Source: an uncultured Janthinobacterium sp. (GTDB taxonomy: Bacteria; Pseudomonadota; Gammaproteobacteria; Burkholderiales; Burkholderiaceae_D). Taken from it: DNA of 61,658 nucleotides. Numbering within the stretch: the first letter of the stretch is position 1; each line of letters opens with the position of its first letter. The notes beneath the pieces were generated by a model, which saw only the letters and a list, made by a program, of their open reading frames with translations, was not told the origin of the DNA and searched no databases. The stretch spans positions 1 to 61,658 of the forward strand of contig CAUSDR010000001.1 in assembly GCA_963530105.1 (NCBI GenBank), given 5' to 3'. The position numbers were made by a program, and so were the translations under genes. Positions 8,215-28,670 of the stretch are shown here, in pieces.

Positions 8215-8284
8215 ATTTATACTTTTTATATATAAATTATTAAAAAAAAACGTATTTGTCAGCCTTCAGACCTTAATGCATAGT
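8215..8284 (+). promoter_or_regulatory. LysR (XapR?) box plus sigma70-like promoter of the TBDR gene (copy 1 of 3)
   Basis: ATTTATA-N9-TATAAAT, 14 nt, GTATTTGTCA; TTGTCA-17-CATAGT; same architecture at 21969-22040(-) and 25345-25416(+). Confidence 0.8.
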
Positions 8285-8497
8285 TGGACGGCGAAGAATT
8301 GAATAAGTCATTTTTGATATCGCTTTTGTGACAATTCACGGTGTCTAGCGGCGCCTGTCATATAGCGGTCATATTCATGTAACGGTTTTGACATATTCGA
8401 TCTTTATACTGCCGTGTCTAGTTGGATAGTTTCCGTATTTCACCACTATAAGCAAGTAAATATGCTTGCAATTAACAACACACTCTAGGGGGTTTAC

Positions 8498-10870
8498 ATG
8501 CAGTTAGTTCAACAACCAAAATTGCGACTAAGTATGATCGCGTTGGCATGCCAATTGGCATGCGTCGGGATCTCTACAGCGCACGCGCAAACCGCGGGCG
8601 AAGCTGCAAGCAAGCCTACTGAAGTCGTCATTACCGCGAAAAAGACGGGTATGGGCTTGATGGTGACGGAAGATGCACCAAAAGCGCGCAGCACGATTAC
8701 GGCTGAAGAGCTGGAAAAGCAGCGCCCGACGGGCAATGCATATGAAGCCCTGGAAATGTTGCCAGCGGTGAATAGCTACAACTACGATGCAACGGGCCTG
8801 TTCGGCGGCGGCATGACACTGCGCGGCTTCAACTCCGACCAGATCGGCGCCACCATCAACGGCGTGCCAGTGAATGACTCCGGCAGTTTCGCCATCTACC
8901 CACAAGAATATGTTGACCAGGAAAATACCTGCTCGCAAACCGTTACCCAGGGTTCCACTGACGCCGACTCGCCGCAAGTGGGCGCGACCGGCGGTAACTT
9001 TGGCATCAACACCTGCAATCCGGAAGACAAGCATCGTCTGCGCATGATGCAGACCATCGGTCAGCTGAACATGAAGAAAACCTTCGTGCGCGTCGATACC
9101 GGCCTGTTCTCGGACAAGCGCACCAAGATGTTCGTCTCCGCTTCGCATGCCGAAGCCGACAAATGGAAAGGCAAGGGCGGCGCCAAGCGCGACCATATCG
9201 ATGCCGGCATCAACTACGACTGGGATCGCTTCAACTACATTCACGCCACCTTGCTGTACAACGAGGCGATGAACAACAACATCAATAACCTGACCTTGGC
9301 TGAAATCAACAAGAACGGTTATTACTTCGACTACGCTGATACCTTCAAGGGCCATCTGACCCCGGTCAAAGGCGTTGCGCAAGTTGAAACGACGCAGTCG
9401 CCAGCCTTCTACAAACTGGGCATCAACCCATTCAAGAACGCGATCGCCTCGGCCACGGCCAAGTTCCGCCTGAACGAGAACCTGGACTTGAAAGTCTTGC
9501 CATACATCTGGTACGGCTATGGTAACGGCGGCGTGCAACAACGCGCCCAGTCGGAAAAGGGTTTCTATGACGCAACCACCGGCCTGCGCAACGGCACGGT
9601 GGACTTGAACGGCGACGGCGATACCCTCGACACCGTCCTGGTCGCCAACGCCAGCGTGACGAAGACGTTCCGCCCGGGCGTGACGGCTTCGCTGAACTGG
9701 ACCTCGGGTAACCACGATGTACTGGGCGGCTTCTGGTACGAGCGCGCGCGCCATCAGCAAACCGGCCCGATGCTGGCGCTGAGCAATGATGGTATCTCGC
9801 AAGATCCTTGGCTGCAAAACGGCCAGATCCTGCGCCCGGACGGCACGCCAGCGCAAAGCCGTAACTGGATGTCGATTTCGACCGCTTACCAGTTCTTCTT
9901 GCAAGACACGATCAGCCTGAATGACGACAAGCTGAAGATCAACATCGGCGTGCGCAGCCCGAACGTGAAGCGTGACTTCACCAACTACGGCGACGAAAAC
10001 AACAACGTCAAGCCGTACAACCTGATCAAGAAGTACAACACGCTGCTGCCGCAACTGGGCGCGCGTTACCGCCTGACCAACGATGACCAGTTGTTCATTT
10101 CCGTTGCCAAGAACGTCAAGGCACCACCTAACTTCGTGTTCGGCAACATCGGCACCAGCGTAAAAGTGGTCAATGGCGTCGCCAACTTCGTCGGTGACGT
10201 GAAACAGGAATCGTCGTGGAATACCGATATCGGCTATCGCCACCAGGATGACAACTTCATCGCGTCGGTAACGGCTTTCATGGTCGATTTCAAGGACCGT
10301 CAGGCAACCACCTTCGATCCGATCACGCAAGCGAGCAGCTACACCAACGTGGGCCGCGTCAGCAACAAGGGTCTGGAATTTGAAATCGGCAATACGCCGA
10401 TCAACGGCTGGGCGATGTACGGTTCGCTGGGTTTCAATAACAGCAAGATCAAGGACGACATGCTGTCGGCCACGAACGTGTACCTTCCAACCGCTGGCAA
10501 GGAAATGATCAACACGCCGAAGAAGAAAGCCGGCTTGTCGGTCGAGTACCAGAACGGTTCGTTCTGGGCCCGCGTCAAGGCGCGTGCCACCGGCCAGCAG
10601 CAAGCTTCGATGGTCAATGATGAAACGGCACCAGGCTACACCACCTTCGGTCTCGATGGCGGCTACACCTTTGCCAACTTCGGTTACATCAAGCGTCCTA
10701 AGCTGACGTTTAACCTGAGCAACATCACGGACAAGCAGTACCGCAATCCGTCCTCGACCACCGTCAAGAACACCAAGCCGATTCCTGGCGTGACGACGTC
10801 GGTGGATACCCAGCGTTACTACCTGGGCGCACCACGCTTCGTATCGGTCACCCTGTCGATCGATATCTAA
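8498..10870 (+). CDS. TonB-dependent outer-membrane receptor
   Basis: Signal peptide (..TAHA), TonB box EVVITA, plug motif LRGF...INGVPVND, C-terminal NLSNITDKQY...GAPRFVSVTLSIDI. Confidence 0.93.
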   Translation: MQLVQQPKLRLSMIALACQLACVGISTAHAQTAGEAASKPTEVVITAKKTGMGLMVTEDAPKARSTITAEELEKQRPTGNAYEALEMLPAVNSYNYDATGLFGGGMTLRGFNSDQIGATINGVPVNDSGSFAIYPQEYVDQENTCSQTVTQGSTDADSPQVGATGGNFGINTCNPEDKHRLRMMQTIGQLNMKKTFVRVDTGLFSDKRTKMFVSASHAEADKWKGKGGAKRDHIDAGINYDWDRFNYIHATLLYNEAMNNNINNLTLAEINKNGYYFDYADTFKGHLTPVKGVAQVETTQSPAFYKLGINPFKNAIASATAKFRLNENLDLKVLPYIWYGYGNGGVQQRAQSEKGFYDATTGLRNGTVDLNGDGDTLDTVLVANASVTKTFRPGVTASLNWTSGNHDVLGGFWYERARHQQTGPMLALSNDGISQDPWLQNGQILRPDGTPAQSRNWMSISTAYQFFLQDTISLNDDKLKINIGVRSPNVKRDFTNYGDENNNVKPYNLIKKYNTLLPQLGARYRLTNDDQLFISVAKNVKAPPNFVFGNIGTSVKVVNGVANFVGDVKQESSWNTDIGYRHQDDNFIASVTAFMVDFKDRQATTFDPITQASSYTNVGRVSNKGLEFEIGNTPINGWAMYGSLGFNNSKIKDDMLSATNVYLPTAGKEMINTPKKKAGLSVEYQNGSFWARVKARATGQQQASMVNDETAPGYTTFGLDGGYTFANFGYIKRPKLTFNLSNITDKQYRNPSSTTVKNTKPIPGVTTSVDTQRYYLGAPRFVSVTLSIDI

Positions 10871-10917
10871 ACGGCGCTTCGCGCAGCCTGCAGGCCAGGC
10901 TGCGCGCGATGTGTCAC

Positions 10918-10945
10918 AACGGGCCTTTGGGCCCGTTTTTCTTTT
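10918..10945 (+). terminator. Rho-independent terminator after the TBDR
   Basis: AACGGGCC-TTTG-GGCCCGTT followed by TTTCTTTT; a second hairpin lies at 10881-10905. Confidence 0.75.
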
Positions 10946-11028
10946 GTGCCGGCAGACCGCGGCCGGACTTTGTTTAACCTGTTTGCGCAATGCCGCTATC
11001 CCGGCAGTTGCGCTATGCTGCGAAGCTT

Positions 11029-12714
11029 ATGAAAACACTGCCCTTATCCCTGATCACAGTGGCCCTCGCCGCCGCCATGTCCGGTTGCGCCACCCATCCC
11101 GTGGCCCCCGTCGACATCAACCTGGTCGCCATGAATGACTTCCACGGCAACCTCGACCGCAGCAAATTTACCTACACCAGCGTCACCGACCCGCTCCGCA
11201 AGACGGTGCAGGCGGGCGGCATCGATACCCTGTCCGGCGCATTGAAAGCGTGGCGCGAGGAAGATGCGCAACTGATTTTTGTCGGCAATGGCGACCTGGT
11301 CGGCGGCAGTCCCGCCATGTCGGCCATGTGGGCTGACGAACCGAGCATCGTGGCCCTGAACATGCTGGGCATGAAGGCCAGTTCCGTGGGCAACCATGAA
11401 TTCGACCAGGGCAAGGCAGAATTGCTGCGCCAGCAGCGCGGCGGCTGCGAGTCGTCGCGCGCCGACAAGGCATGCAAGTTCAGCCCCGACTTCAAGGGCG
11501 CCAGCTATGCCTACATGGCGGCCAACGTGATCGACACGCAGACGGGCAAGCCGCTGCTGCCGGCCTACCGCATCGAAGAGGCGCATGGCGTCAAGGTGGG
11601 CTTGATCGGTGCCGTGCTGAAAGATACGCCCTCCGTGGTCACGGCGGCTGGCGTTGCCGGCCTGCGGTTCGGCGATGAAGCGGACGCCATCAACGCCACC
11701 TTGCCGCAATTGCGCGCACAGGGCGTGGGCGTGTTCGTCGTGCTGCTCCACCAGGGCGGCGAGACCAAGGAAGCCGTCGACCAGGCGGATTGCAGCGGCC
11801 TCAAGGGAGAAGTGGTCGATGTGGTGAAGCGTCTCGACCCGGCCATCCAGCTGGTCATCAGCGGCCATTCGCACCAGGGTTATCTGTGCCGTGTCGATGG
11901 CCGCCTGGTGACGCAGGCGCAAATGGGCGGACATATGTTGACCCGCATCAAGCTCAAGGTCGATCCCGTCAGGAATGCGCTGATCGATGCCACCGCGCAC
12001 AACGTCGTCATGCTGCCAGGCCAGTATGCGCCGGACCCGGCCGTGGCAGCCTACCTGGACTCCGTGAAACAGCGCAGCGAGGTGGAATTGTCGCGTCCCG
12101 TGGCCGTCATCGCCGTGCCCAGCGTGGGCCGCAGCACCAAGGGTGGCGGCGCTTCCGCGCTGGGCGACCTGGTGGCCGACAGCACCCTGTTCGGCGCGCG
12201 CGCCGCTGGGGCGCAAATCGGCCTGATGAACAATGGCGGCATCCGCAAGGACCTGGAAGCGGGCGCCGGCCTGATGACGAACGTGGGCCAGAACCAGGCG
12301 GTTGTGCCGTTTGGAAATACCTTGATCGTCGTCAGCCTGTCCGGTGCGCAAATCCGCAGCCTGCTGGAACAGCAATGGCCGGGCGCCGAAGCGGAAGAGG
12401 GTAATTTGCTGCAAGTGTCCGAAGGTTTTGCTTATCGCTGGGATAGCACGCAGCCGCAGGGCCAGCGCGTCGTGCCTGGCAGCATCATGCTGAACGGTGC
12501 CGCGATTGAGGATGATCAACAATACCGTGTCGCCGCCAACAGTTTTCTCGCTGGCGGCGGCGACCGCTTCACCGTGCTGGCGGCTGGCACGCGCCGGCTC
12601 GACACGGGCGTACGCGACATCGACGCCTTCAGCAATTACCTGATCGACCGCGCGCGCGCCGGCAAGCCGGCCGGCAGCGCCACGGCGGCAGGGCGCATCG
12701 TGCGCGTCAAATAA
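11029..12714 (+). CDS. UshA-like bifunctional metallophosphoesterase / 5'-nucleotidase lipoprotein
   Basis: Lipobox MSGC; NDFHG, GD, GNHEFD and SGHSH motifs; C-terminal 5'-nucleotidase domain (NNGGIR, PFGN, FLAGGGD). Confidence 0.9.
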   Translation: MKTLPLSLITVALAAAMSGCATHPVAPVDINLVAMNDFHGNLDRSKFTYTSVTDPLRKTVQAGGIDTLSGALKAWREEDAQLIFVGNGDLVGGSPAMSAMWADEPSIVALNMLGMKASSVGNHEFDQGKAELLRQQRGGCESSRADKACKFSPDFKGASYAYMAANVIDTQTGKPLLPAYRIEEAHGVKVGLIGAVLKDTPSVVTAAGVAGLRFGDEADAINATLPQLRAQGVGVFVVLLHQGGETKEAVDQADCSGLKGEVVDVVKRLDPAIQLVISGHSHQGYLCRVDGRLVTQAQMGGHMLTRIKLKVDPVRNALIDATAHNVVMLPGQYAPDPAVAAYLDSVKQRSEVELSRPVAVIAVPSVGRSTKGGGASALGDLVADSTLFGARAAGAQIGLMNNGGIRKDLEAGAGLMTNVGQNQAVVPFGNTLIVVSLSGAQIRSLLEQQWPGAEAEEGNLLQVSEGFAYRWDSTQPQGQRVVPGSIMLNGAAIEDDQQYRVAANSFLAGGGDRFTVLAAGTRRLDTGVRDIDAFSNYLIDRARAGKPAGSATAAGRIVRVK

Positions 12715-12732
12715 TATTTATAAGGAAAAAGC

Positions 12733-13962
12733 ATGCGTCGTTTATTTGTTTCCCTGCTCGTCTCTGGCCTGTTCGCGGGCAGCGCCCACGCCGACTTCAC
12801 GATTCCCGGCTACGAGCTGGTGCACACCTCGCCCGTGGAAACCACCTTGACCAATCCCGACCTGCGCGAGCCTGTTGCCGTGTGGACGGAGCTGTTCGAC
12901 GGGGCCAAAAAAGAAATCGTCATCGCCCAGTTCTACGCCGTCAGCAAACCGGGCACGGCCTTTGAAAAGGTCCTGGCCAGCCTGACGGCCGCCGGCCAGC
13001 GCGGCGTGAAGATCCGCTTCCTGCTGGACCAGAAGGGCGTGGGCTTGTCGGATGCGGCGACCATCGCGCAGATCAAGGCCATTCCGAATCTGGACTTGCG
13101 CCTCATCGACTTCAATAAAATCACGGGCAACGGCATCGTGCATGCGAAATACCTGGCCGTCGATGGCCAGGTGGCGTACATCGGCAGCCAGAATTTCGAC
13201 TGGCGCTCGTTCGAACACATCCATGAGACAGGCTTGAAGATCACGGAGCCCGCCATGGTCAGCCAGGTGCAAGCCATCTTTGAACAGGATTGGCAGGCGC
13301 AGGCGCTGACGTCGCAAGGCAGCCGCGCCACGGTGCTCAACAACAAGGTGGTGCCGGCCAATTACGCGCAAAACGCCTTCCTGCTGGCCAGCCCGAATGC
13401 CTACAACCCGGCTGGCGTGGGCGACTCGGAAACGGGCTTGCCAGCCTTGCTGGCGCAAGCGCAAAGCGAAGTGCGCATCCAGCTGCTCGATTATGCGCCC
13501 CTGTCGTACGGCCCGAACCGCACGCGGCCGTACTACGCCGTGATCGACAACGCCGTGCGCGCGGCGGCCCAGCGGGGCGTGAAGATCAAGCTGATGGTGT
13601 CCGCCTGGAACACGGAAGCGCCCGCCATTGCCTATCTGAAAAGCCTGGCCTTGGTGCCGAACGTGGAAATCCGCATCGTCACCTTGCCCACCGCTTCGAC
13701 GGGATTCATCCCGTTCGCGCGCGTGATCCACAGCAAGACCATGAGCATCGACGGCAAGCTGACCTGGGTTGGCACCAGCAATTGGGCCGGCGGCTATTTT
13801 GACCTGTCGCGCAACCTGGAAGTGGTGCTGCGCAACGACGCCATGGCGCAGCGCATCGCCGCCTTGCACGAACAGACGTGGAGCTCGGCGTACGCGCAGC
13901 CGATCGATATCAACAAGCAATATCCAAAACCGGCGAAAGCTGCGCCGCAAGGCAAGGAGTAA
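12733..13962 (+). CDS. Exported phospholipase D-superfamily protein, PLD3/PLD4/vaccinia K4-like (probable nuclease)
   Basis: Signal peptide (..SAHA); two HKD motifs, HAKYLAVD..GSQNFDWRS and HSKTMSID..GTSNW; no transmembrane anchor. Confidence 0.85.
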   Translation: MRRLFVSLLVSGLFAGSAHADFTIPGYELVHTSPVETTLTNPDLREPVAVWTELFDGAKKEIVIAQFYAVSKPGTAFEKVLASLTAAGQRGVKIRFLLDQKGVGLSDAATIAQIKAIPNLDLRLIDFNKITGNGIVHAKYLAVDGQVAYIGSQNFDWRSFEHIHETGLKITEPAMVSQVQAIFEQDWQAQALTSQGSRATVLNNKVVPANYAQNAFLLASPNAYNPAGVGDSETGLPALLAQAQSEVRIQLLDYAPLSYGPNRTRPYYAVIDNAVRAAAQRGVKIKLMVSAWNTEAPAIAYLKSLALVPNVEIRIVTLPTASTGFIPFARVIHSKTMSIDGKLTWVGTSNWAGGYFDLSRNLEVVLRNDAMAQRIAALHEQTWSSAYAQPIDINKQYPKPAKAAPQGKE

Positions 13963-13964
13963 CG

Positions 13965-15038
13965 ATGAACATGCAAAAATTAGTGGGCGTGCTGGCGCTG
14001 GGCGCCGCATTTGCTTCCGGCAATGTGCTAGCCTGGGGCAGTGATGGCCACCGCGCCGTGGGCGCTATCGCCGATCAATTGCTCAAGGGGAGCGCCGCCG
14101 AAGCCTACATCGGCAAGTTGCTGTTGCCGGGCGAAAGCCTGGAAAAGATCGCCAACTGGCCCGATTGCGTGAAAGGCACGTATTGCGGTCCGCAATCGCC
14201 GGAAATGTTGACCTATGTGGCAGCGAACCCCAAGCATGGCGAATACCATTACACGAACGTGCCGTTCCAGAACGCGCATTACCACGACCATGGCGTGGGC
14301 ACGGCCGACGACGATATCGTGCAGACGCTGAAACAGGCGATTCTGGTGTTGCAGGGCAAGGCTGACGCGGCCAGCAATCCGCACGGCTTCAGCCAGCGCG
14401 AAGCCTTGATCCTGATCACGCACCTGGTCGGCGATATCCACCAGCCGCTGCATGTGGGCAATGCCTTCGTCGCCAAGGATGGCCAGTTCTTCGTGCCCGC
14501 CACGCAGGCGCAGATCGATGACGTCACCATTTTCAATGCGCGCGGCGGCAATGACTTGCTGCTCGACGATGCGAAGATGACGGCCTTGTCCGACGCCGTG
14601 ATTCCCGCGCCGCCGCCAGCCGAAGCAGGCGCCAAGCCGGCCAGCGCGTATCCGAAGTCGCCCACCAAGCCCCTGCATTCCTACTGGGATACAACCGTGG
14701 TCGACTACGCCATGCGCCGCCTGAGCACGCGCACGCCGCAGCAGTTTGCCCGCACCGTGATCGCCAGCGCGCCGGACGTGGACCGTAACAGCGGCGACCC
14801 CGCCACCTGGCCGTATCAATGGGCCGACGCCTCGCTGGCGGCATCGAAGATTGCCTTCACGGATGTGGTGGCGGGACCGGCTACCCGCCAAACCAGCCGC
14901 AAGGGCGATGCATACAATGTGTGGGCGCTGACGGTGCCGGACAATTATCCCGTGCCCAGTTCGGCGCTGGCGAAGCAGCAGCTGATCGCCGGTGGCTATC
15001 ACCTGGCTGCCGTGCTGCAGGCGATCTGGCCGCAATAA
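13965..15038 (+). CDS. Exported S1/P1 nuclease
   Basis: Signal peptide followed by mature N-terminal WGSDGH; ANWPD, HLVGDIHQPLH, GGN and LHSYWD Zn motifs; starts 2 nt after the PLD stop. Confidence 0.93.
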   Translation: MNMQKLVGVLALGAAFASGNVLAWGSDGHRAVGAIADQLLKGSAAEAYIGKLLLPGESLEKIANWPDCVKGTYCGPQSPEMLTYVAANPKHGEYHYTNVPFQNAHYHDHGVGTADDDIVQTLKQAILVLQGKADAASNPHGFSQREALILITHLVGDIHQPLHVGNAFVAKDGQFFVPATQAQIDDVTIFNARGGNDLLLDDAKMTALSDAVIPAPPPAEAGAKPASAYPKSPTKPLHSYWDTTVVDYAMRRLSTRTPQQFARTVIASAPDVDRNSGDPATWPYQWADASLAASKIAFTDVVAGPATRQTSRKGDAYNVWALTVPDNYPVPSSALAKQQLIAGGYHLAAVLQAIWPQ

Positions 15039-15050
15039 TCGTCTCGCTTG

Positions 15051-15076
15051 AAAGCGGCCCGTGGGCCGCTTTTTTT
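15051..15076 (+). terminator. Rho-independent terminator
   Basis: AAAGCGGCC-CGTG-GGCCGCTTTTTTT between convergent genes. Confidence 0.8.
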
Positions 15077-15839
15077 ACGCCAGGGTGATGGCGATACCCA
15101 TCTCGCGGTATGGGGCCAGCAGCGCATTGTCCACCTCGCGGTGCGCGACGATATCGTTGACCTGGCTCAAAGGCGCGATTTGGAACGGCGAGGCCGTGTT
15201 GAACTTTTCCGGCGAGGCGAGCACCACGGTGCGGGCGGATGCCTCGCTCAGCGCGCGCTTGACGCAGGCTTCCTCGTAATCTCCCGTGGTAATGCCTGTC
15301 TGCGGATGCAGGCTGGCCACGCCCATGAAATACAGGTCGGCACGGATGCGGCCGATGGCTGCCACGGTGTCGGCGCCGACGCCGACGATGGAGTGTTTAT
15401 ACAGGCGCCCGCCCAGCATCAGCACCTCGATCAGCGGATGGTTCACCAGTTCGACGGCAATCGACGGGCTGTGCGTGACCACGGTGGCGCGCAGGTCCGG
15501 TGGCAGCTGGCGCGCCAGCTGCACGGCCGTGGTGCCGCCGTCGATGAACACGACTTGCCCCGCTTCTATCATGGCCGCCGCGGCGCGGCCAATGGCCGGC
15601 TTGATGTCGGACGAGATCTGTTCGCGCCCCGCAAACGCCACCAGCGCAGGCGAGCGCGGCAGCAGGGGCAGGGCGCCGCCATGCACGCGCTCCAAGCGGC
15701 CTTCCCTGGCCAGTTCGCGCAGGTCGCGGCGTATCGTGTCTTCCGACAGGCCCAGGCTGTCGCTGACGGCCCTGGCGACAATCTGTCCCTCGCGCTGGAG
15801 CAAGTCCAGCAAGTACTGCTTGCGTTGATGTGTTAGCAT
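15075..15839 (-). CDS. DeoR/GlpR-family transcriptional regulator
   Basis: MLTHQRK..., SEDTIRRDLREL, RVHGGA and FIDGGTT motifs; real start is internal to the 417-aa ORF. Confidence 0.92.
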   Translation of the reverse strand: MLTHQRKQYLLDLLQREGQIVARAVSDSLGLSEDTIRRDLRELAREGRLERVHGGALPLLPRSPALVAFAGREQISSDIKPAIGRAAAAMIEAGQVVFIDGGTTAVQLARQLPPDLRATVVTHSPSIAVELVNHPLIEVLMLGGRLYKHSIVGVGADTVAAIGRIRADLYFMGVASLHPQTGITTGDYEEACVKRALSEASARTVVLASPEKFNTASPFQIAPLSQVNDIVAHREVDNALLAPYREMGIAITLA

Positions 15840-15923
15840 GATTTTTCTTGTATTTTCTTGATATTGCACGAGTTTGCATGATAAAGTCGATGAAAGCAAG
15901 CATATGCAAACACAGGAGACACC

Positions 15924-16892
15924 ATGCGCGAAGAAACGACAAAACAGGAACGGGTACGCATCGCTGCGGTGCAGACACTGTCGCACGACTGGTACCTGCT
16001 GCAAAAGACCACGTTCGACTACCTGCGCCGCGACGGCCAGTGGCAGACGCAGACGCGGGAAACCTATGACCGCGGCGATGGCGCCACCATCCTGCTCTAC
16101 AACAAGGCGCGGCGCACGGTGATCCTGATCCGCCAGTTCCGCTTCCCCACCTACCGCGACGGCCATGACGGTTTCCTGATCGAGGCGGCGGCCGGCTTGC
16201 TGGAACAAGCCAGCGCGGAGCAGCGCATCCGCGCCGAGGTGGAAGAAGAAACGGGCTACGCCGTGGGCGATGTGCACAAGGTGTTCGAAGCTTTCATGAG
16301 TCCCGGCTCGGTGACGGAGCGTTTGCATTTCTTTGTCGCCGAATACGATCCTTCAAGCCGCATCGGCGACGGCGGCGGCCTGGCCCACGAGGGCGAAGAT
16401 ATCGAAGTGCTGGAATTGCCGCTGGAACAGGCCATGCGCATGGTGGACGATGGCCGCATCTGCGATGGCAAGACCATTATGTTGCTGCAGCATGCGCAGT
16501 TGCACTTGATGCCGCCAGCGCAAGAGACGCGGCGGGGCATGCAGATTCTGGTGGCCGGCCCTTACCGTTCCGGCACGGGCGACGATCCCGCCCGGATGGC
16601 GGCGAATGTGGCGGCCATGCAAGCCGTCTGCCTGCCTTTGTATGCCAAGGGGCACATGCCGGTGCTCGGTGAATGGCTGGCCTTGCCCATGCTGGCGCTG
16701 GCCGGTTCCACGCAAGTGGGCGATCTTGTGTACGAAGAATTGTTCCACGCGCACGCGACGCGCCTGCTCAGCCATTGCGACGCCGTGCTGCGCATCGGCG
16801 GTGCGTCAGCGGGGGCGGACCAGATGGTGGCGGTGGCGCGCAGCCTGGGGCTGGCGGTGTTTTTCTCGCCGGACGAGATTACCCAGGCGTAA
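15924..16892 (+). CDS. NudK/YffH-like NUDIX hydrolase fused to a C-terminal DUF4406/NDT-like domain
   Basis: RETYDRGDGA, Nudix box GLLE..IRAEVEEETGY, MSPGSVTE, GEDIEV, DGKT; extra domain from M16539 (ILVAGPY...CDAVLRIGGASAGAD). Confidence 0.85.
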   Translation: MREETTKQERVRIAAVQTLSHDWYLLQKTTFDYLRRDGQWQTQTRETYDRGDGATILLYNKARRTVILIRQFRFPTYRDGHDGFLIEAAAGLLEQASAEQRIRAEVEEETGYAVGDVHKVFEAFMSPGSVTERLHFFVAEYDPSSRIGDGGGLAHEGEDIEVLELPLEQAMRMVDDGRICDGKTIMLLQHAQLHLMPPAQETRRGMQILVAGPYRSGTGDDPARMAANVAAMQAVCLPLYAKGHMPVLGEWLALPMLALAGSTQVGDLVYEELFHAHATRLLSHCDAVLRIGGASAGADQMVAVARSLGLAVFFSPDEITQA

Positions 16893-16925
16893 AAAAAAGC
16901 GCAGCCCGCAGGCTGCGCTTTTTTT
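16891..16925. terminator. Bidirectional Rho-independent terminator
   Basis: A8-GCGCAGCC-CGCA-GGCTGCGC-T7 between convergent genes. Confidence 0.88.
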
Positions 16926-16996
16926 ATCATTTTATAGCGTGCCTGAAAAATGCCCAGGGCTAGGCAACGACGCCATGGGTATTTTCTCAGGTGCTC

Positions 16997-17968
16997 CTAG
17001 CGCGACTTGACGAACGGGATACCGATGGCTTTTGGCGCGATGGATTTCGCCATCAAGCCCGCCAGCACGATCACGGTCACCACGTATGGCACCATCTGGA
17101 TCAGCGAACCGGGGATGCGGCCCACGACCGGCAAGTCCACGCCTTCGATCTGGATCTGGATGGCGGCGAAAAAGCCGAACATCAGGCAGCCGAGGAAGGT
17201 ATAGACGGGGCGCCAGTTGCCGAAGACCATGGCCGTCAAGGCCAGGTAGCCGGCGCCGGCCGACATGTCGCGCAGGAAGAAGCCGCTTTGCACGATGGCC
17301 AGGTAGGCGCCCGAGAACGAGCACAGGATGCCGGCCACCAGCATGGCCATGTAGCGCGTCGCTTCCACGCTCACGCCGGCCGAGTCGGCCGCATGCGGAT
17401 TTTCGCCGCAGGCGCGCAGGCGCAGGCCGAAGCGCGTGTGGTACAGCAGCCAGTGCACGAGCGGAATCAGGAGGAACGCCACGTAGACGAGGATGGAATG
17501 GCCGCCGATCAGGTGGGCATACACCCAGCCGATGAAGGGAATGTGTTCCACGTACTGCGTGCCCGGCAAGACGACGTCAAACAGGCGCGCCGAACCGAGG
17601 TCGGGCGTGCGACCGCCTTGCTGGAAGAAGAATTGCGCCAGCACAAACGTCAAGCCGCTCATGGCGATGTTGATCGCCATGCCAGCCACCAGCTGGTTGC
17701 CTTTTTGCGTGATGCTGACATAGGCCTGCAGCAGGGCCAGGGCAACGCACACGAGCATGCCGGCGGCCATGCCGTAATACGGGTTTTGCGTCGTGTAGGC
17801 CACGGCGGCGGAAGCGAAGGCGCTGGCCAGGATCTTGCCTTCCAGGCCAATGTCGATCATGCCGCTGCGTTCGGCAAACAGGCCGGCCATGGCGGCGAAG
17901 ATCAGGACCGGCGCATTGCGCACGGTCGATACCAAGATGCTGGCGAAATGAAAGTCGTCGAGTGTCAT
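16997..17968 (-). CDS. Nucleoside ABC transporter permease (NupC-like)
   Basis: ERSGMIDIGLEG, RLRACGENP..ADSAG, GYLALTAMVFGNW; hydrophobic. Confidence 0.9.
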   Translation of the reverse strand: MTLDDFHFASILVSTVRNAPVLIFAAMAGLFAERSGMIDIGLEGKILASAFASAAVAYTTQNPYYGMAAGMLVCVALALLQAYVSITQKGNQLVAGMAINIAMSGLTFVLAQFFFQQGGRTPDLGSARLFDVVLPGTQYVEHIPFIGWVYAHLIGGHSILVYVAFLLIPLVHWLLYHTRFGLRLRACGENPHAADSAGVSVEATRYMAMLVAGILCSFSGAYLAIVQSGFFLRDMSAGAGYLALTAMVFGNWRPVYTFLGCLMFGFFAAIQIQIEGVDLPVVGRIPGSLIQMVPYVVTVIVLAGLMAKSIAPKAIGIPFVKSR

Positions 17969-17971
17969 GGT

Positions 17972-19051
17972 TTAGCCTTTGGTGCGCTTGAGCAGGGCGG
18001 AAATGGCCGGTGCGTAGAAGTTTTCCATCGCGCCGCAGAACAGGATGATCAAGCCCTGGATAAAGATGAAAGTTTCCGTCGGGATATTCGGTTTTTCCAG
18101 CGACAAGTCGAAGCCGCCCTGGATCAGCGCGCCGAACAGCACGGCCGACAGGAAGATGCCGACCGGATGCTGGCGGCCCATCAGGGCGATGGCGATGCCG
18201 ATGAAGCCGGCGCCGCCGACGAAGTTCAGCGACAGGTAATGCGTCGAGCCCATGATGGAATTGACGGAACCGAGGCCCGCCAGCGCGCCGGAAATCAGCA
18301 TGACGATGATGATCATCTTGCTGATCGACACGCCCGCATAGTGGGCCGCGTGCTTGTTCAAGCCCGTGGCGCGCAGCTTGAAGCCCCACGACGAGCGCCA
18401 CACCATCACGCCGTAGACCACCAGCGCGGCAATTGCCAACAGGAAACTGATGTTCAGCGGCGTGTCGCCCAGCGACGGGAACCAGGTGGACAGGCGCGGC
18501 ATTTCGCCGCTTTCCGCGAAGACGCGGCTGGCCGTGTTCTGCTCGCCTGGCGGAATCAGGTATTTGACGATCACGAAGTTCATCAGGCTGGCGGCGATGA
18601 AGTTGAACATGATGGTGGTGACGACGATATGGCTGCCGCGCTTGGCTTGCAGGTAGCCGGGCAAAAAGCCCCACAGCGCGCCGAACAGGGCCGCGCCGAT
18701 CATGGCCGCCGGAATCAAGAGCCAGGCGGGCAGGGTCTGGTCGAAGGCCAGCATGGCCACCGTCAGGCCCAGGCCGCCGATATACATCTGGCCTTCGGAA
18801 CCGATATTGAACAGGCCGGCCTGCATCGCCACCGAGACCGACAGGCCCGTGAAGATGAAGGTGCTGGCGTAGAACAGGGTGTAGCTCAGGCCTTCCGGAT
18901 TGAGGATGGCGCTGTTGACGAGGATGCCCAGCGATTCGGCCGGATCTTCGCCCAGCATATAAATCACCAGGGCTGCGACCAGCATGGCCGACAGCAGGTT
19001 TAACATGGGCATGACAAAGGCTGTCGCCCAGCGTGGCAAGTCGTTATTCAT
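17972..19051 (-). CDS. Nucleoside ABC transporter permease (NupB-like)
   Basis: GLFNIGSEGQ, LRATGLN..AHYAG, GFIGIAIALMG; hydrophobic. Confidence 0.9.
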   Translation of the reverse strand: MNNDLPRWATAFVMPMLNLLSAMLVAALVIYMLGEDPAESLGILVNSAILNPEGLSYTLFYASTFIFTGLSVSVAMQAGLFNIGSEGQMYIGGLGLTVAMLAFDQTLPAWLLIPAAMIGAALFGALWGFLPGYLQAKRGSHIVVTTIMFNFIAASLMNFVIVKYLIPPGEQNTASRVFAESGEMPRLSTWFPSLGDTPLNISFLLAIAALVVYGVMVWRSSWGFKLRATGLNKHAAHYAGVSISKMIIIVMLISGALAGLGSVNSIMGSTHYLSLNFVGGAGFIGIAIALMGRQHPVGIFLSAVLFGALIQGGFDLSLEKPNIPTETFIFIQGLIILFCGAMENFYAPAISALLKRTKG

Positions 19052-20601
19052 GATTTATGCATTCCCCCCATCAGCAGACCGATGCGGGTGGTATCGAATT
19101 CTTCAATTTTCAGTTCGCCGGTGATGCGTCCACCGCACATGACGAGAATGCGGTCGGCCAGCGCCCGCACTTCTTCCAGTTCGACCGACACCAGCAGGAT
19201 CGCCACGCCTGCGTCGCGCAGGGCCAGCAATTGCGTATGGATGCTTTCGATGGTGCCGATGTCGACGCCGCGCGTGGGCTGGCCCACCAGCATCAGTTTC
19301 GGCTGCGCCAGCACTTCGCGCGCGATCACTACCTTTTGCTGGTTACCGCCAGACAACAATCCGATGCGCAGGTCCGGATTGGCCGGGCGCACATCGAAGG
19401 TCTTCAGCAGTTCCGCGCAGCGCGCGCCGATGGCCTTGAAGTTGAACAGGCCCCAGCGGTTCTTCAGGCGGTCCTGGTAACCGAGGATGGTGTTCTGCAT
19501 GACGGAGAAATTCTTCACCACGCCATCGCGCAAGCGGTCTTCCGGGATGTGGGCGATGCCCAGTTCGCGGAACGCCAGCGGCAAGCCGTCGGCATCGTGG
19601 CGCTTGGCAAACGGCAAGTCCTTGTCCAGGAAGCGCAGCGTGCCGGACGTCGGCAAACGCATGCCCGAGAGAATTTCCAGCAGCTCGCTCTGGCCATTGC
19701 CCGAAACCCCCGCGATGGCGACGATCTCGCCGGCGCGCAGATTGAAACCGATATCGGCCAGCAATTTGACTTGCTGCTCGTCAGCCAGTTGCAAACCATC
19801 CACTTCCAGCACCGTGGCGCCCGGATTGTACGGTGCGCGCGGCAAGTGGCTCTGGATGGGGCGGCCGACCATCATGTTGGCCAGTTCCTCTTTCGAGGTG
19901 CCGGCCGTCGCCACGGCGCCCACCACCGTGCCGCCGCGCATGACGGTGACGTTGTCGGTGATTTCCAGGATCTCTTGCAGTTTGTGCGTGATCAAGATGA
20001 TGGTCTTGCCCTGTTCCTTGAACAGGCGCAGGATTTCAAACAGCGATGCCGTTTCCTGTGCCGTCAGCACGGCCGTCGGCTCGTCGAGGATCAGGATGTT
20101 GGCGCTGCGGTAAATCTGCTTGAGGATTTCCACGCGCTGCTGCGCGCCGACGGACAAGTCTTCGATCTTCGCCAGCGGGTCGACGTCGAGGCGGTAGCGC
20201 GCGCAAATTTCGCGCAGCTGGGCTTCCGCCTCGGCACGATGGCTGGCCAAACGAAAGCCGCCTTCCGTGCCCAGCATGATATTGTCGAGGACGGTGAAGT
20301 TCTCGACCAGCATGAAATGCTGGTGCACCATGCCAATGCCGAGGTTGATCGCCTCCTGGCTGTTGCGGATAGGCTGTACTTTTCCGTCGAGCAGGATTTC
20401 TCCGCCGTCGGCACGGTAGTATCCGTACAGGATGCTCATCAAGGTCGACTTGCCGGCGCCGTTTTCCCCCACCAGGCCATGGATACTGCCCTTGGCGATG
20501 GAGAAGCTGACGTCGGCGTTCGCCTTCACATGTCCAAATTGCTTGGAAATGCTGCGAAATTCTACTGCTGGCTGCATAGGTTCATAACTGGATAGTTTCA
20601 T
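19048..20601 (-). CDS. Nucleoside ABC transporter ATPase (tandem-domain, NupA-like)
   Basis: GENGAGKST, LILDEPT, LSGGNQQK and QPTRGVD motifs; alternative start at 20577. Confidence 0.93.
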   Translation of the reverse strand: MKLSSYEPMQPAVEFRSISKQFGHVKANADVSFSIAKGSIHGLVGENGAGKSTLMSILYGYYRADGGEILLDGKVQPIRNSQEAINLGIGMVHQHFMLVENFTVLDNIMLGTEGGFRLASHRAEAEAQLREICARYRLDVDPLAKIEDLSVGAQQRVEILKQIYRSANILILDEPTAVLTAQETASLFEILRLFKEQGKTIILITHKLQEILEITDNVTVMRGGTVVGAVATAGTSKEELANMMVGRPIQSHLPRAPYNPGATVLEVDGLQLADEQQVKLLADIGFNLRAGEIVAIAGVSGNGQSELLEILSGMRLPTSGTLRFLDKDLPFAKRHDADGLPLAFRELGIAHIPEDRLRDGVVKNFSVMQNTILGYQDRLKNRWGLFNFKAIGARCAELLKTFDVRPANPDLRIGLLSGGNQQKVVIAREVLAQPKLMLVGQPTRGVDIGTIESIHTQLLALRDAGVAILLVSVELEEVRALADRILVMCGGRITGELKIEEFDTTRIGLLMGGMHKS

Positions 20602-20658
20602 GGAAACGCGCCGCGCGGGGACTGGCCCCGGCGGCGCGCTAAAAGATACGGAGAAAAA

Positions 20659-21654
20659 TTAAACCGGGCAGCTGCTGCCGACGCGGTAATCGATCACTTT
20701 GATCTTGCCATCGATAATGTCCTTACGCGCACCCAACACGCGCTTTTCGATTTCCGGCGTGATCAGCTTGCGGTTGTTGGCGTCGAGCGCCCAGTCCACG
20801 CCGCCTTCTTTCAAGCCTTTATAGCTGACGCCGCCCTTCCAGGTGCCGTTCTTGACTTGCATGAAGCTGTCGTAGACCGTGTTGTCGACGCGCTTGACCA
20901 TCGAGGTCAGGATGCTGCCTGGATACAGGTGATTCTGGTTCGAATCGACGCCGATCGCCAGCTTGCCTTTTTCCTTGGCCATCTGCAGGGTACCCATGCC
21001 GCTGCCGCCGGCGACGGCGAAGACGACATCGACGCCGCGCTCGAATTGCGAGCGGGCCAGTTCGCCACCCTTGGCCGGATCATTCCAGGCGCCGGACGTG
21101 GTGCCGACCATGTTTTGCGTGATTTCCGCCTTCGTGTTGACGGCCTTGACGCCTTGCGCGTAGCCGCAGGCGAAGTTGCGGATCAGGGGAATATCGATGC
21201 CGCCGATGAAACCGACTTTCTTGCTCTTGCTGGCCATGGCCGCGGCCACGCCCACCAGGTAGGAGCCTTCTTCTTCCTTGAAGACGACGGAATTGACGTT
21301 GCTGCCGGCGGCCTGGCCGTCGATCAGCACGAATTTCACGTTCGGGAATTCCTTGGCGACTTTTTGCACGGCTTGCGTTTGCGCAAAGCCGATGGCGGCG
21401 ATCATGTCGAGTTTCTTGCGGGCCAGGCCACGCATGACTTGTTCAGCCTGCGTATCGCTCGATGCCTGCACTTCGATGAAGGAAATGCCCGTGTCTTTTT
21501 TGAAGCGCGAGGCGCCTTCGAAAGCGGATTGGTTGAACGACTTGTCGAACTTGCCGCCCGCGTCATACACGACACCCAGTTTTGGGGTAGCCGCGGACGC
21601 TTGAGCAGTCAGAAAAACGGCTGCGATCGTCAAACTAAATTGTGTAAGTTTCAT
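20659..21654 (-). CDS. BMP/PnrA-family nucleoside-binding protein
   Basis: Signal peptide; DKSFNQSA, FKEEEGSYLVG, AIGVDSNQ and TSMVKRVD motifs. Confidence 0.92.
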   Translation of the reverse strand: MKLTQFSLTIAAVFLTAQASAATPKLGVVYDAGGKFDKSFNQSAFEGASRFKKDTGISFIEVQASSDTQAEQVMRGLARKKLDMIAAIGFAQTQAVQKVAKEFPNVKFVLIDGQAAGSNVNSVVFKEEEGSYLVGVAAAMASKSKKVGFIGGIDIPLIRNFACGYAQGVKAVNTKAEITQNMVGTTSGAWNDPAKGGELARSQFERGVDVVFAVAGGSGMGTLQMAKEKGKLAIGVDSNQNHLYPGSILTSMVKRVDNTVYDSFMQVKNGTWKGGVSYKGLKEGGVDWALDANNRKLITPEIEKRVLGARKDIIDGKIKVIDYRVGSSCPV

Positions 21655-21968
21655 GAATTGGCTCCTGGAAGATCGATATTGTATATTTTTTATAGGTGAA
21701 ACATATAATTTGGGGCCGATTTAGCCTGTTTTTCATGCACGAGGTGATGGTTCCTTATCAACATTGCACCGTATTGCACAAGATCATGCACAAGATCATT
21801 GCTGACCTTGTATGCTTTTGTGTCTACAGTGTGATGCTCATGCAACAGTTGAGCCCCGTCTCTTTTATAGTTACAACATCGAATGGGGCGGCCGGAGCGG
21901 GCAGGGATGCGCCGTCGTCAGGACGGGCAAGGCAAGCACGGGACCGGCGCCGCGATGGGCGTCCGAAT

Positions 21969-22040
21969 CACTATGCATCATGCCAGATATGTATGACAAA
22001 TACGTTTTTGTTTAACTATTTATATGAAAGCCATATAAAT
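21969..22040 (-). promoter_or_regulatory. LysR (XapR?) box plus promoter of the nucleoside ABC operon (copy 2 of 3)
   Basis: Minus strand reads ATTTATA-TGGCTTTCA-TATAAAT-N14-GTATTTGTCATACATAT-N6-TGATGCATAGTG. Confidence 0.85.
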
Positions 22041-22046
22041 AACTTG

Positions 22047-22949
22047 TCAAGCCGCAGGGGGATTCAGGATATTCAAAAACGCCCGCACCACGGGCGCATC
22101 GTCGAGCGTGGTGTAACTGATATATAGATTCGCCGACGGCGGATTGGTCTTGATGGGCAGGAACACGACGCCGGGCCAGCCGATGCGGCTCGTCGTTTCC
22201 GGCACCAGGGTCACGCCCAGTCCGGCACCCACCATGGCCAGCAAGGTTTGCGGCTCGCTTGCTTCCTGGAAAATCACCGGTTCGAAACCGGCATTGATGC
22301 AACACTGCACCAGGTAGCGGGGGAACGCGGATTTATCCAGGTTGAGCGTGAGCATGGGCTCGTGGGCGATGTCGATCAGCTCGATGGCCGTGTTTTTCGC
22401 CAGCGGATGGTGTTCGTTGACGGCCACGCAGACGTTTTCGCGGAAGCACAGTTCCTGGCGCAGGTTGTCATGGCGCAAATCGTCGTCGTTGAGCTTGGGC
22501 TCGCGCCAGAAGCCCACGTCGATCTGCTTGGCGCGCAAGGCTTCGTATTGCACCGTGGGACCGAATTCATGGATGGTCCAGGTGACGCGGGGGAACTTGG
22601 TCTGGAATTCTTCCAGCAGGCTGGGAATGGGGCCCCACATGGCCGAACCGACGATGCCCACGCGCAAGCGGCCCACTTCGCCGCGGTCGATCTGGCGGAT
22701 GGTATCGATGGTCATGCGCATCTTGGCCAGCAAGTCGGCTGCCTCGTTCATCAGCGCCTTGCCCGCCACGGTCAGCTCGAAGGTGCGCGTGGTGCGCGCG
22801 AACAGGCGTACGCCCAGTTCGCTTTCCAGTTTCATGATCTGCTGGCTCAAGGGCGGCTGCGAGATATGCAGGCGCTCGGCGGCGCGGCTGAAGCTTTTCT
22901 CCTCGGCAACGGCAAGAAAATACTTTAACTGTTTCAGATCGATGGACAT
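22047..22949 (-). CDS. xapR: LysR regulator, XapR-like
   Basis: LysR HTH; GRLRVGIVGSAMWG and DVGFWR resemble recalled E. coli XapR (GRIELGVVGTAMWG, DAGIWR); xapA is nearby. Confidence 0.8.
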   Translation of the reverse strand: MSIDLKQLKYFLAVAEEKSFSRAAERLHISQPPLSQQIMKLESELGVRLFARTTRTFELTVAGKALMNEAADLLAKMRMTIDTIRQIDRGEVGRLRVGIVGSAMWGPIPSLLEEFQTKFPRVTWTIHEFGPTVQYEALRAKQIDVGFWREPKLNDDDLRHDNLRQELCFRENVCVAVNEHHPLAKNTAIELIDIAHEPMLTLNLDKSAFPRYLVQCCINAGFEPVIFQEASEPQTLLAMVGAGLGVTLVPETTSRIGWPGVVFLPIKTNPPSANLYISYTTLDDAPVVRAFLNILNPPAA

Positions 22950-23034
22950 GCTTTCCTTGGCGTTGCGTGGTGCTTGGCGATGGAACGGCGCGCGGACCGG
23001 TGAAGGCGCGCGCGCTTTCTTTACAGCAGTCGTA

Positions 23035-23976
23035 TTATCGTGCCACCACTGCCTGCATGGCAATGGCCAGCGCCGTGCCGACTTGTGCATTGTGCTTGAC
23101 GAGGGCGATATTCGTCGCCAGGCTGCGGCCATCCGTCAGCTGCTTGATGCGCGACAGCAGGAATGGCGTGACTTGCTTGCCTTTCACGCCGCCCGCGTCC
23201 GCTTCCTGCAGCGCCTGCGTGGTGATCGCATCGATCTCTTCCTTCGGCATGGCTTGCGCGGCTGGCACGGGGTTGCTGACGACCACGCCGCCTTTCAAGC
23301 CCAGCTGCCATTTGGTGCCGATGAAGGCCGCCTGTTCGGCTGGCGTATCGAGGCGGAAATCGGCCTTGAAGCCGCTTTCGCGCGTGAAGAAGGCGGGAAA
23401 GCCTTCCTGGCCCACGCTGATGACGGGCACGCCGTGCGTTTCCAGGTATTCCAGCGTCAGGCCGATGTCGAGGATGGATTTCACGCCGGCGCAGACGACG
23501 GCCACCGAGGTGTGCGCCAATTCCTGCAAGTCGGCGGAAATGTCGAAGCTGGTTTCCGCGCCGCGGTGCACGCCGCCGATGCCGCCCGTGACGAACACGG
23601 CGATGCCCGCCAGTTCCGCGCAGATCATGGTGGCGGCCACGGTGGTGGCGCCCAGCTTGCCTTGCGACAGCACGAACGGCAAGTCGCGGCGGCTGACCTT
23701 CATGGCGTCGGGCGAGGTGCCCAGCAGTTCCAGCTGCTCGGGCGACAGGCCCACGCAAATCTTGCCGTCGATGATGGCGATGGTGGCCGGCACGGCGCCG
23801 CCGTCACGGATGATCTGTTCCACTTCGCGTGCCATTTCCACGTTTTGCGGATATGGCATGCCGTGCGAAATGATGGTCGATTCCAGCGCCACGATGGCCT
23901 TGCCGGCGGCGCGCGCGTCGAGGACTTCTTGCGAGAACGAGAGGAAGTTGGCGAGTTGAGTAGTGCGTTGTGTCAT
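23035..23976 (-). CDS. psuG: Pseudouridine-5'-phosphate glycosidase
   Basis: [39 protein letters not shown] and VTPFLL motifs. Confidence 0.96.
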
Positions 23977-23979
23977 GGT

Positions 23980-25149
23980 TCAGTCCTGTTGAAAGAGGGT
24001 AGGAGGGAGCGGTGCCAGGTCGGCGTCGTCGATATCGTCGAGCGCGCCGGCGGAAATCAGGGGCGAGACGGTGGCGGCCGATTCCAGGGTCATGGCGGCC
24101 AGTTTCAGGCCGCGCCGGCAAGCCAGTTTCAAGTCGCTGCTGTCGTGGTACAGCGACCAGCAGACGGCGGCGGAAAACGCGTCGCCGGCGCCCGTCACGT
24201 CGACGGCGTCCACTTCGCGCGCGGCCAGGTGCTCGATCGGCGCCTCCGGCGTGTCGCCATCGGTGAAGTACACGCCTTCGCCGCCGCAGGTGACGATCAC
24301 CTGGCGCGCGCCCTGGCGCTGCACCTCGCGGCAGGCGGCGCGCACGTCAAACGCCGTGGGCAGGGCGCGCGCCACGCGCGTTTCCAGCTCGCCGCGGTTG
24401 AGGATCAGCAGGCGCAGGCCCGTCAGGTCTTGCGGCAAGTGCGCCATCTTTGGCTGCGAGACGGCGATGATGACCAGTGGCGCCACCTGGCTGCTGCCCG
24501 GGCTGGCGTCCTGGCGCGCATCGGCCAGCAGGGCTTGCACGCTGTCGTGGCCCAGGTTCAGGTCGCACACGGTGAGGGCGGCGGCCGCGCGCTGCGGCTG
24601 GCGGCTGTGCAGAAAGGCGGGCGTCAGCTGTTCGTACAGTTGCATGTTGGCCATCGCCAGCAGCATTTCGCCATGCTCGTCGAGTACGGCGGTGTAGGTG
24701 CCGCTGCTGGTATTGCTCAAATGCAAGCTGCCGCGCATGTCGATGCCGGCCTCTTCCGCATGGGTTTGCAGGGCATGGCCGGCCGCGTCATCGCCCAGCG
24801 CCGTCAGCAAGGCGACGGGCAGCGACAGGCGGGCCAGGTTTTCCGCGATATTGCGGCCCACGCCGCCAAACACCTCTTCCGAGCGCACGGGATTGGATGT
24901 ACCCATCTGCAAAGTGGAGAGGGTGCGCATCTTGCGGTCCAGGTTGGCGGCGCCGATGCACAGCACGGGGCGGCTGTCGGGCAGCACATAGGCGCGACCC
25001 AGCAGGCGGCGTTCACGGATCAGTCCGGCGATATGGCCGGCGACGGCCGAGCGCGACAAGCCCAGTTCGCTCGCCAGTTCCTGCTGCGAGATGAAGGGGT
25101 TGTTGCGGATCAGCGTATATAACTGGTCTTTTTTATTGGTATCGGTCAC
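23980..25149 (-). CDS. psuK: HTH-fused PfkB kinase, probable pseudouridine kinase
   Basis: N-terminal HTH (NPFISQQELA..LSRSAVAGHI), GGVGRNIAENL and DVTGAGDAF; adjacent to psuG; start uncertain (GTG 25149 chosen). Confidence 0.85.
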   Translation of the reverse strand: MTDTNKKDQLYTLIRNNPFISQQELASELGLSRSAVAGHIAGLIRERRLLGRAYVLPDSRPVLCIGAANLDRKMRTLSTLQMGTSNPVRSEEVFGGVGRNIAENLARLSLPVALLTALGDDAAGHALQTHAEEAGIDMRGSLHLSNTSSGTYTAVLDEHGEMLLAMANMQLYEQLTPAFLHSRQPQRAAAALTVCDLNLGHDSVQALLADARQDASPGSSQVAPLVIIAVSQPKMAHLPQDLTGLRLLILNRGELETRVARALPTAFDVRAACREVQRQGARQVIVTCGGEGVYFTDGDTPEAPIEHLAAREVDAVDVTGAGDAFSAAVCWSLYHDSSDLKLACRRGLKLAAMTLESAATVSPLISAGALDDIDDADLAPLPPTLFQQD

Positions 25150-25167
25150 AAGGTTTTCGCTGAGGGT

Positions 25168-25200
25168 TAAACATTTGTTTGTGACTGTAAACATTTGTCT
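25168..25200. promoter_or_regulatory. Tandem palindromic operator candidate upstream of psuK
   Basis: TAAACATTTGTTT and TAAACATTTGTCT, 20-bp period; core AAACA-TT-TGTTT is palindromic. Confidence 0.6.
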
Positions 25201-25344
25201 TCGGCGTGTCAAGTTCGTCTCGCGTCCGTGTCAGGCGCGCGCGGCGTCTTCGGCGCGGGGCGTGGAATCCATACATTTTCCGGGCATTGCAGCGCAAAGG
25301 CTGCCTCTGGCAGGCAAGGGCTTGCCTGGACTATAATATCGGCC

Positions 25345-25416
25345 ATTTATATTTGAATTGTATAAATGGGCAAGAAAAATGGTATTTGCCATACATATTC
25401 CGTTTGATGCATAGTG
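25345..25416 (+). promoter_or_regulatory. LysR (XapR?) box plus promoter of the xapA-deo operon (copy 3 of 3)
   Basis: ATTTATA-TTTGAATTG-TATAAAT-N14-GTATTTGCCATACATAT-N6-TGATGCATAGTG; aligns without gaps to copy 2. Confidence 0.85.
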
Positions 25417-28658: not shown

Positions 28659-28670
28659 AGAACAATCGTC

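Follow-up and report, generated by a model that had tools for sequence, protein, structure and literature searches.

A conserved XapR-type operator-promoter probably links nucleic-acid uptake to nucleoside breakdown in Janthinobacterium and its relatives

We analysed a 61,658-nucleotide stretch of DNA (the window) from an uncultured Janthinobacterium sp., contig CAUSDR010000001.1. A preliminary description had noticed in it a promoter-like element of about 70 bp in three copies, located before a gene for a TonB-dependent receptor (TBDR), before a BMP-type ABC importer operon and before the xapA-deo genes, and had attributed it to a XapR regulon. Judged from sequence, this repeat is a real, conserved operator-promoter, and it is very probably bound and activated by the XapR-family LysR regulator encoded beside it. 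The assignment follows from the score of this LysR above the XapR cut-off and its grouping with enteric XapR, from the co-occurrence of motif and regulator, from the persistence of the motif where rival regulators are missing and from its uniqueness, in Escherichia coli, to the xapA-yfeN region. The regulon is an expanded variant of the known XapR regulon, wider than first described. The three copies and the regulator gene are placed as follows (aa, amino acids).

8215-8284, plus strand: predicted XapR-type operator-promoter, copy 1 (dyad 8215-8237, -35-overlapping box 8252-8261, -10 CATAGT)
21970-22040, minus strand: predicted XapR-type operator-promoter, copy 2, exact pattern match before the BMP operon
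25345-25415, plus strand: predicted XapR-type operator-promoter, copy 3, exact pattern match before xapA
22047-22949, minus strand: XapR-family LysR regulator, 300 aa (NF007439, 318.1 bits for a cut-off of 290)

The pattern ATTTATA-N9-TATAAAT-N14-GTATTTGYCA-N14/15-ATGCATAGT matches exactly at these three places, as first reported, and has 0 matches in 100 dinucleotide shuffles of the window. Copies 2 and 3 align over 72 nt without a gap, with 52 of the 72 bases identical. The T-N11-A core in the dyad and the TTGYCA-17/18-CATAGT spacing are also present as claimed. If +1 is placed 7 nt after CATAGT, the dyad centre reads as about -66; LysR-activated sigma70 promoters carry a T-N11-A dyad centred near -65. 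A second conserved site, made of an A-run and GTATT over the -35, stands 14 nt past the dyad at a fixed spacing. No match to the exact motif was found in viral contigs.

A matrix built from the three window copies located two additional sites in the same genome (G000): site 4 at G000:C241 463-394(-) and a weak site 5 at G000:C163 5227-5158(-). With a richer matrix, derived from 133 orthologous xapA, BMP and TBDR sites, exactly five sites were retained in the 5.9-Mb assembly, with scores of 71.7, 69.0, 67.9, 46.4 and 44.5, all other positions scoring 12 or less; as the assembly consists of 622 contigs, a further site could be missing from this count. In the same scan no box was found at xdh, guaD and add, at the start of the window. 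The earlier count of three copies thus holds inside the window and not for the genome. The scan of genome and relatives suggested in the preliminary description showed that the motif tracks the regulator, at five genomic sites rather than three.

Conservation was assessed on the best 80 xapR loci. The site is present in all 77 loci holding xapA, and at most 2.5 kb upstream of the BMP gene in all 69 loci holding it. It also follows add in 30 of 30 distinct regions examined, a count biased upward, as it was through the motif that most of them were retrieved. Column conservation over 72 distinct xapA and 54 distinct BMP copies revealed nearly invariant boxes separated by variable spacers; the A-run ahead of GTATT and a TACATAT stretch past the -35 are further conserved. 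Boxes are kept while spacers diverge across at least 10 genera. Within the genus, the strict pattern was found in 50 of 58 genomes (49 of the 52 good ones), and the reversed-pattern control gave 0.

The LysR passes the XapR model NF007439/PRK09986 with its 318.1 bits, E. coli XapR scoring 531.4 and YnfL 213.7. Its identity is 40% with E. coli XapR and 31% with YnfL. In a quick tree its clade and enteric XapR share one branch with a support of 95, and the motifs G-[ST]-AMWG, D-G-WR, EPQT and WPGV occur in these two groups and in no other row of the tree. The gene is linked to xapA in 77 of the 80 loci. The closest named relatives of the protein, at 88-100% identity, come from Janthinobacterium, Duganella, Pseudoduganella, Massilia and Rugamonas; a class-wide search found no XapR in 399 other genomes of the class.

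Co-occurrence was counted in 251 genomes of the family, a close ortholog being defined by at least 68% identity. A XapR ortholog is encoded by 66 of them, one of which (G144) is unpublished, and the motif is found in 68: it is present in 66 of the 66 genomes with the ortholog and in 2 of the 185 without (G180 and G280), the reversed-pattern control being 0. The single match in G180 was rejected as a XapR site, as it precedes an unrelated LysR of 30% identity and has no -10; we treat it as chance or as the site of another LysR. Two LysRs of 42% identity, in G080 and G184, were rejected as XapR: they fall outside the XapR group in the tree, and xapA and the motif are missing. For psuK, psuG and the DeoR type no match was found in G099 (98% complete), which retains XapR and two perfect boxes; in G003, which retains motif and XapR, none was found for psuK. 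In both genomes xapR is directly divergent from the box, which in G099 lies 33 nt from the xapR start; a regulator gene divergent from its box is the usual LysR layout.

The motif could also be followed into E. coli K-12. With the site matrix of the Janthinobacterium genome, the best match in 8 kb of E. coli sequence was the xapA-yfeN gap. When the pattern in Oxalobacteraceae letters was allowed up to 3 mismatches, it matched once in the 4.64-Mb chromosome, at 2524989, in the same gap, and the control gave 0; a second pattern, already loosened toward E. coli, led to the same outcome. This match faces yfeN, whose product is a Tsx-family nucleoside channel (Pfam, 149.8 bits). The region 2524916-2525059 (L034 5417-5560) contains two back-to-back boxes, the weaker one facing xapA and the stronger one facing yfeN. 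In 64 enteric loci with a xapA start (38 distinct sequences), the upstream core is ATCnATA-N9-TAT-N18-GTATTGGTAA-N15-CGYTATAA, and the outward copy is present in 14 of 14 distinct sequences with yfeN and in 0 of 24 without. The notion that XapR controls only xapAB in E. coli is thus probably incomplete, since the best match faces yfeN, which may be a further, so far unrecognised XapR target in K-12. At xapAB, XapR is described as requiring two sites, one over the -35 and one upstream, removal of the latter lowering induction (PMC7205307); these sites are termed low-evidence (PMC7567609). We infer that they are the two inverted GTATTGG boxes.

Some of the dyads also appear to serve promoters pointing the other way. 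At the xapA dyad, a TAnnAT hexamer lies 6-7 nt outside, toward psuK-psuG-xapR, in 56 of 77 loci, which suggests autorepression of xapR. A second receptor gene, TBDR2, is divergent from the BMP operon in 45 of 80 loci. Of 71 distinct sequences, 56 have an extended -10 toward TBDR2 at 39-40 nt from the shared dyad; in 6 the distance is 18 nt and in 2 it is 28-29 nt, shorter by whole helical turns. The site is kept at TBDR2 in 29 of the 30 loci examined. In this genome TBDR2 has been relocated together with its shared dyad to contig C163 (L002 3456-7637), outside the xap cluster, and this relocation accounts for site 5. The outward promoter there faces an HD-GYP gene in this genome, at a distance of about 300 nt, and different sequence in relatives.

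Several points weigh against the XapR assignment. The evidence for it is comparative only. Identity to E. coli XapR is only 40% for the whole LysR and 32% for its effector domain, and the branch joining its clade to enteric XapR also contains a long-branch row, YfeR. The genomes are kin, largely of one clade, so that 66 of 66 does not amount to 66 independent events or to a statistical test. G280, which is 99% complete, has three boxes and no match to xapR or xapA; its contig ends about 200 nt from the place of xapR in relatives, so that an assembly gap is possible. Within E. coli, the xapA-ward element scores -23.7 on the matrix, the agreement being in geometry. In addition, HusR/YnfL, a second LysR, is reported to bind the xapA-yfeN region at a different box and to activate xapA in stationary phase (PMC12844172).

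These points bear most directly on the idea that the element is the operator of another regulator, namely the DeoR type (15075-15836), the helix-turn-helix (HTH) domain of PsuK, RutR or a different LysR, and that XapR merely travels along. All of these candidates are encoded in or near the same cluster, the boxes persist in G280 without a xapR match, and HusR binds the homologous E. coli region; we nevertheless consider the idea improbable. In G280, psuK, psuG and the DeoR type are likewise without a match, and G099 keeps perfect boxes with the same three missing. Moreover, the DeoR type is found in only 29 of the 80 xapR loci, PsuK has a candidate repeat of its own (below), and the RutR box is, we presume, unlike the motif found here. 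As for a different LysR, the HusR box CnGnnnAnnTnnnCnG does not resemble the motif, our LysR is closer to XapR than to YnfL, and the 42%-identical LysRs of G080 and G184 come without xapA and motif.

It is also quite unlikely, in our view, that XapR binds the element but acts mainly as a repressor released by inducer, the TACATAT stretch and the divergent promoters then being the main function. Such a role would fit the near invariance of TACATAT within the -35/-10 spacer of the xapA and BMP copies, the overlap of the dyad with the candidate divergent promoter toward xapR, and the mere 18 nt between the dyad and the TG of the extended -10 in 6 TBDR2 loci. However, CATAGT is a poor -10 held at a fixed 17/18 bp from the -35, as expected under activation, and in E. 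coli, where the xapA promoter is laid out alike, XapR is described as an activator (PMC7205307). The 52 of 72 bases common to copies 2 and 3 could finally reflect recent duplication of a single constitutive promoter that needs no regulator. We regard this as highly improbable, because spacers diverge and boxes are kept over at least 10 genera, because replacement of the TBDR by a type of about 1140 aa leaves the element in place, and because it was not found in 183 of the 185 genomes without the ortholog.

We therefore retain activation by XapR, for which we propose the following mechanism. XapR would sit on the dyad ATTTATA-N9-TATAAAT, centred near -66 according to LysR-family rules. In the presence of inducer it would also occupy the AAAA-N2/3-GTATT site, 22 bp downstream and overlapping the -35, and from both sites would recruit sigma70 to the weak CATAGT -10. 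A nucleoside would in this way jointly induce uptake across the outer membrane, nucleases, import across the inner membrane and nucleoside breakdown; by analogy, xanthosine or inosine-type nucleosides are the first candidates for the inducer. The predicted targets here are the TBDR1-nucleotidase-two nucleases unit, the BMP ABC importer, xapA-deoB-deoC-deoA-cdd, a PhoB paralog with an EpsA-like regulator, and the second TonB receptor, which shares a dyad. Pfam and NCBIfam confirmed the genes that had been described downstream of the three window copies.

8498-10870, plus strand: TonB-dependent receptor TBDR1, 790 aa, substrate putative (Pfam PF00593 and PF07715)
10990-12714, plus strand: 5'-nucleotidase, UshA-like (PF02872 and PF00149)
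12733-13962, plus strand: PLD-family protein, likely a nuclease (PF13091; weak NucT/DrmC matches below cut-off)
13878-15038, plus strand: S1/P1 nuclease (PF02265)
15075-15836: DeoR-type regulator
16997-20601, minus strand: BMP transporter, ABC ATPase and two permeases (PF00005, PF02653)
20659-21654, minus strand: BMP/PnrA-like binding protein, likely for nucleosides (PF02608; PDB relatives include TmpC)
23035-25152, minus strand: psuK (HTH and PfkB domains; start codon taken from sequence reading) and psuG, likely co-transcribed with xapR (PF00294/PF13412, PF04227)
25333-25338, minus strand: candidate divergent -10 TATTAT toward psuK-psuG-xapR, 6 nt outside the dyad, function putative
25549-26388, plus strand: xapA, xanthosine phosphorylase (TIGR01699, 418 bits for a cut-off of 370.9)
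26398-33026, plus strand: deoB, deoC, aldehyde dehydrogenase, deoA and cdd (NCBIfam; dehydrogenase by Pfam PF00171)
8355-8410, plus strand: predicted Pho-box promoter (four heptamers at 8355, 8366, 8377 and 8388, an 11-bp period, then 10 nt and TATACT)

The Pho-box promoter, which had been missed in the preliminary description, stands between motif copy 1 and TBDR1 and is conserved across genera. Its pattern occurs in 29 of 29 distinct TBDR-type leaders, the same leaders to which it was fitted, in 0 of 77 xapA and 0 of 57 BMP leaders, and in 0.2% of shuffles. As an independent check, the matrix built from the TBDR leaders recovers the promoter of pstS (C3:26307-27233), its match lying upstream of the gene at C3:27404(-). 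Given this result and the position of the promoter beside copy 1, the nuclease operon probably responds to nucleosides as well as to phosphate starvation. The receptor slot after add is occupied by the 790-aa TBDR or by one of about 1140 aa (L037, L205, L207, L212), and both promoters are kept either way. The matrix also yields further Pho-type promoters, on G000 contigs C383, C446, C165, C39, C3, C424 and C132; with 19 matches above threshold, it outlines the Pho regulon of this genome.

These results bear on how far the original attribution can be taken. XapR as the regulator was upheld by the family cut-off, the tree, co-occurrence and the E. coli match, whereas the term master activator overstates its role, because no box was found at the neighbouring xdh, guaD and add genes and because the TBDR operon carries its own Pho promoter. 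Likewise, the shared motif does link the TBDR to nucleoside catabolism, but this evidence, which had been called direct, is comparative.

Site 4 (G000:C241 1-463; L035 6837-8361) precedes genes for a PhoB-like regulator and an EpsA-like LuxR protein, an order taken from G006 because our own contig ends inside the PhoB-like gene. The pair is directly downstream of an ExeM/NucH nuclease gene and a PEP-CTERM gene, and a Pho-type promoter is present at exeM in 3 of 3 loci checked. The surroundings contain exeM, PEP-CTERM genes, an S8 peptidase and a type II secretion cluster. We counted the paralog in the best 30 loci among 37 genomes holding it, 29 of which belong to the XapR clade, G280 and the unpublished G144 included. 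In these 29 loci the box precedes the paralog in 26, is shifted in one and is absent in two; Asp10 is lost in all 29 and Asp53 is replaced by Glu in 26. The gene pair also occurs in three genomes that lack XapR; there Asp10 and Asp53 are retained and no box is present.

The paralog scores 251.8 against the PhoB model TIGR02154, below the cut-off of 296.2, of which the genome's own best PhoB also falls short (294.5). In a quick tree it falls in the PhoB clade, with a support of 96, alongside the PhoB proteins of E. coli and of the genome itself. PhoB contacts bases through Thr194, Val197, Arg201 and Arg219 (PMC3973317); the paralog retains Thr194, Arg201 and Arg219, Val197 being Ala or Thr. E. 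coli PhoB with Asp10Ala/Asp53Glu is described as constitutively active (PMC3978041), and the best PDB match of the paralog receiver is 2JB9, a chain with these changes, at 117.8 bits versus 113.7 for wild-type PhoB. By analogy with the engineered protein, the paralog is predicted to be always on.

Even when phosphate is not short, a XapR-induced, phosphorylation-independent PhoB copy may switch on genes with Pho boxes, for instance the TBDR-nuclease operon and the ExeM nuclease, an idea that we put forward only tentatively. It would create a feed-forward loop in which a trace of nucleoside leads, via the paralog, to full extracellular DNA scavenging. Against it, the base-contacting Val197 is changed, Asp-to-Glu changes are not activating in every case (PMC4395418), and Asp53 is retained in three orthologs. 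Moreover, G241 has the Pho promoter and no match to the gene pair, so that ordinary PhoB suffices there, and the EpsA-like partner points to PEP-CTERM or secretion targets instead.

Other features of the cluster were noted. TBDR1 falls in generic TBDR clusters only in the ESM Atlas. The BMP leader (21654-21970) is long, about 300 nt here and 220-550 nt in relatives; no Rfam match indicating an RNA element was found in the window or in two loci. Just ahead of psuK, at 25168-25198, the direct repeat TAAACATTTGT occurs twice with a 20-bp period; of 77 loci, 73 have at least one copy and 50 have two. It is a candidate operator of the N-terminal HTH of PsuK, forming a separate small circuit. The aldehyde dehydrogenase between deoC and deoA (28671-31052) has 793 aa and two Aldedh stretches, and may oxidise the acetaldehyde made by DeoC. 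After cdd, a 403-aa protein (33048-34259) combines an N-terminal deaminase domain with a C-terminal part without Pfam match, and is conserved at the end of the xapA-deo operon. A RutR-type regulator, an aminotransferase and a methylmalonate-semialdehyde dehydrogenase are encoded nearby (38337-43776), without a box. In G280 (L198 7347-8534), a transaldolase gene is inserted between box and BMP gene, which would add pentose recycling to the regulon.

The analysis provides a defined candidate XapR binding motif, in place of the two low-evidence sites listed for E. coli, and points, through shared regulation, to nucleic acids as the likely substrate class of two orphan TonB receptors. Oxalobacteraceae of soil and water likely couple the scavenging of DNA and RNA for carbon and nitrogen, through XapR, with that for phosphate, through PhoB, in the same operon. 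Should the PhoB paralog need no kinase for its activity, it would be a natural two-component regulator turned into a transcriptionally controlled relay. We found no account of a XapR regulon that extends past xapAB, of yfeN as a XapR target or of the Oxalobacteraceae system in a literature search that stopped short of subscription papers, regulon databases and bioRxiv supplements; a prior in-silico prediction of the regulon is possible.

BenM, CatM and AlsR promoters have an ATAY-N7-RTAT dyad with T-N11-A and, two helical turns further downstream, another site that covers the -35, and divergent promoters of this type share the dyad. The element described here resembles them in all three respects, but the predicted inducer and targets differ, and the LysR misses the NCBIfam cut-offs for all three regulators. 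In E. coli, the LacI- and DeoR-type repressors CytR and DeoR control deoCABD, cdd and tsx. As in that system, one regulon spans outer-membrane uptake, import and the deo/cdd genes; unlike there, a LysR activator likely replaces the LacI and DeoR repressors, and nucleases are included. The site-4 paralog has both changes in kind of the engineered E. coli PhoB Asp10Ala/Asp53Glu (PMC3978041), aspartate-less receivers offering a further comparison (PMC4395418); unlike the engineered protein, it is natural, is paired with an EpsA-like gene rather than phoR, and has Ala or Thr for Val197. A further close relative of the system is E. coli XapR/xapAB, with which it shares the regulator family, the xapA linkage and the promoter layout: dyad with N9, N14 with an A-run, GTATT over the -35, N15 and the -10. 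E. coli XapR is described as a local activator, which acts on xapAB through two low-evidence sites and does not regulate its own gene (PMC7205307, PMC7567609, PMC2395238). In contrast, the system described here has five sites, an ABC importer in place of XapB and a candidate autoregulatory promoter, and it extends to TonB receptors, nucleases, pyrimidine and deoxyribose catabolism and a downstream regulator pair.

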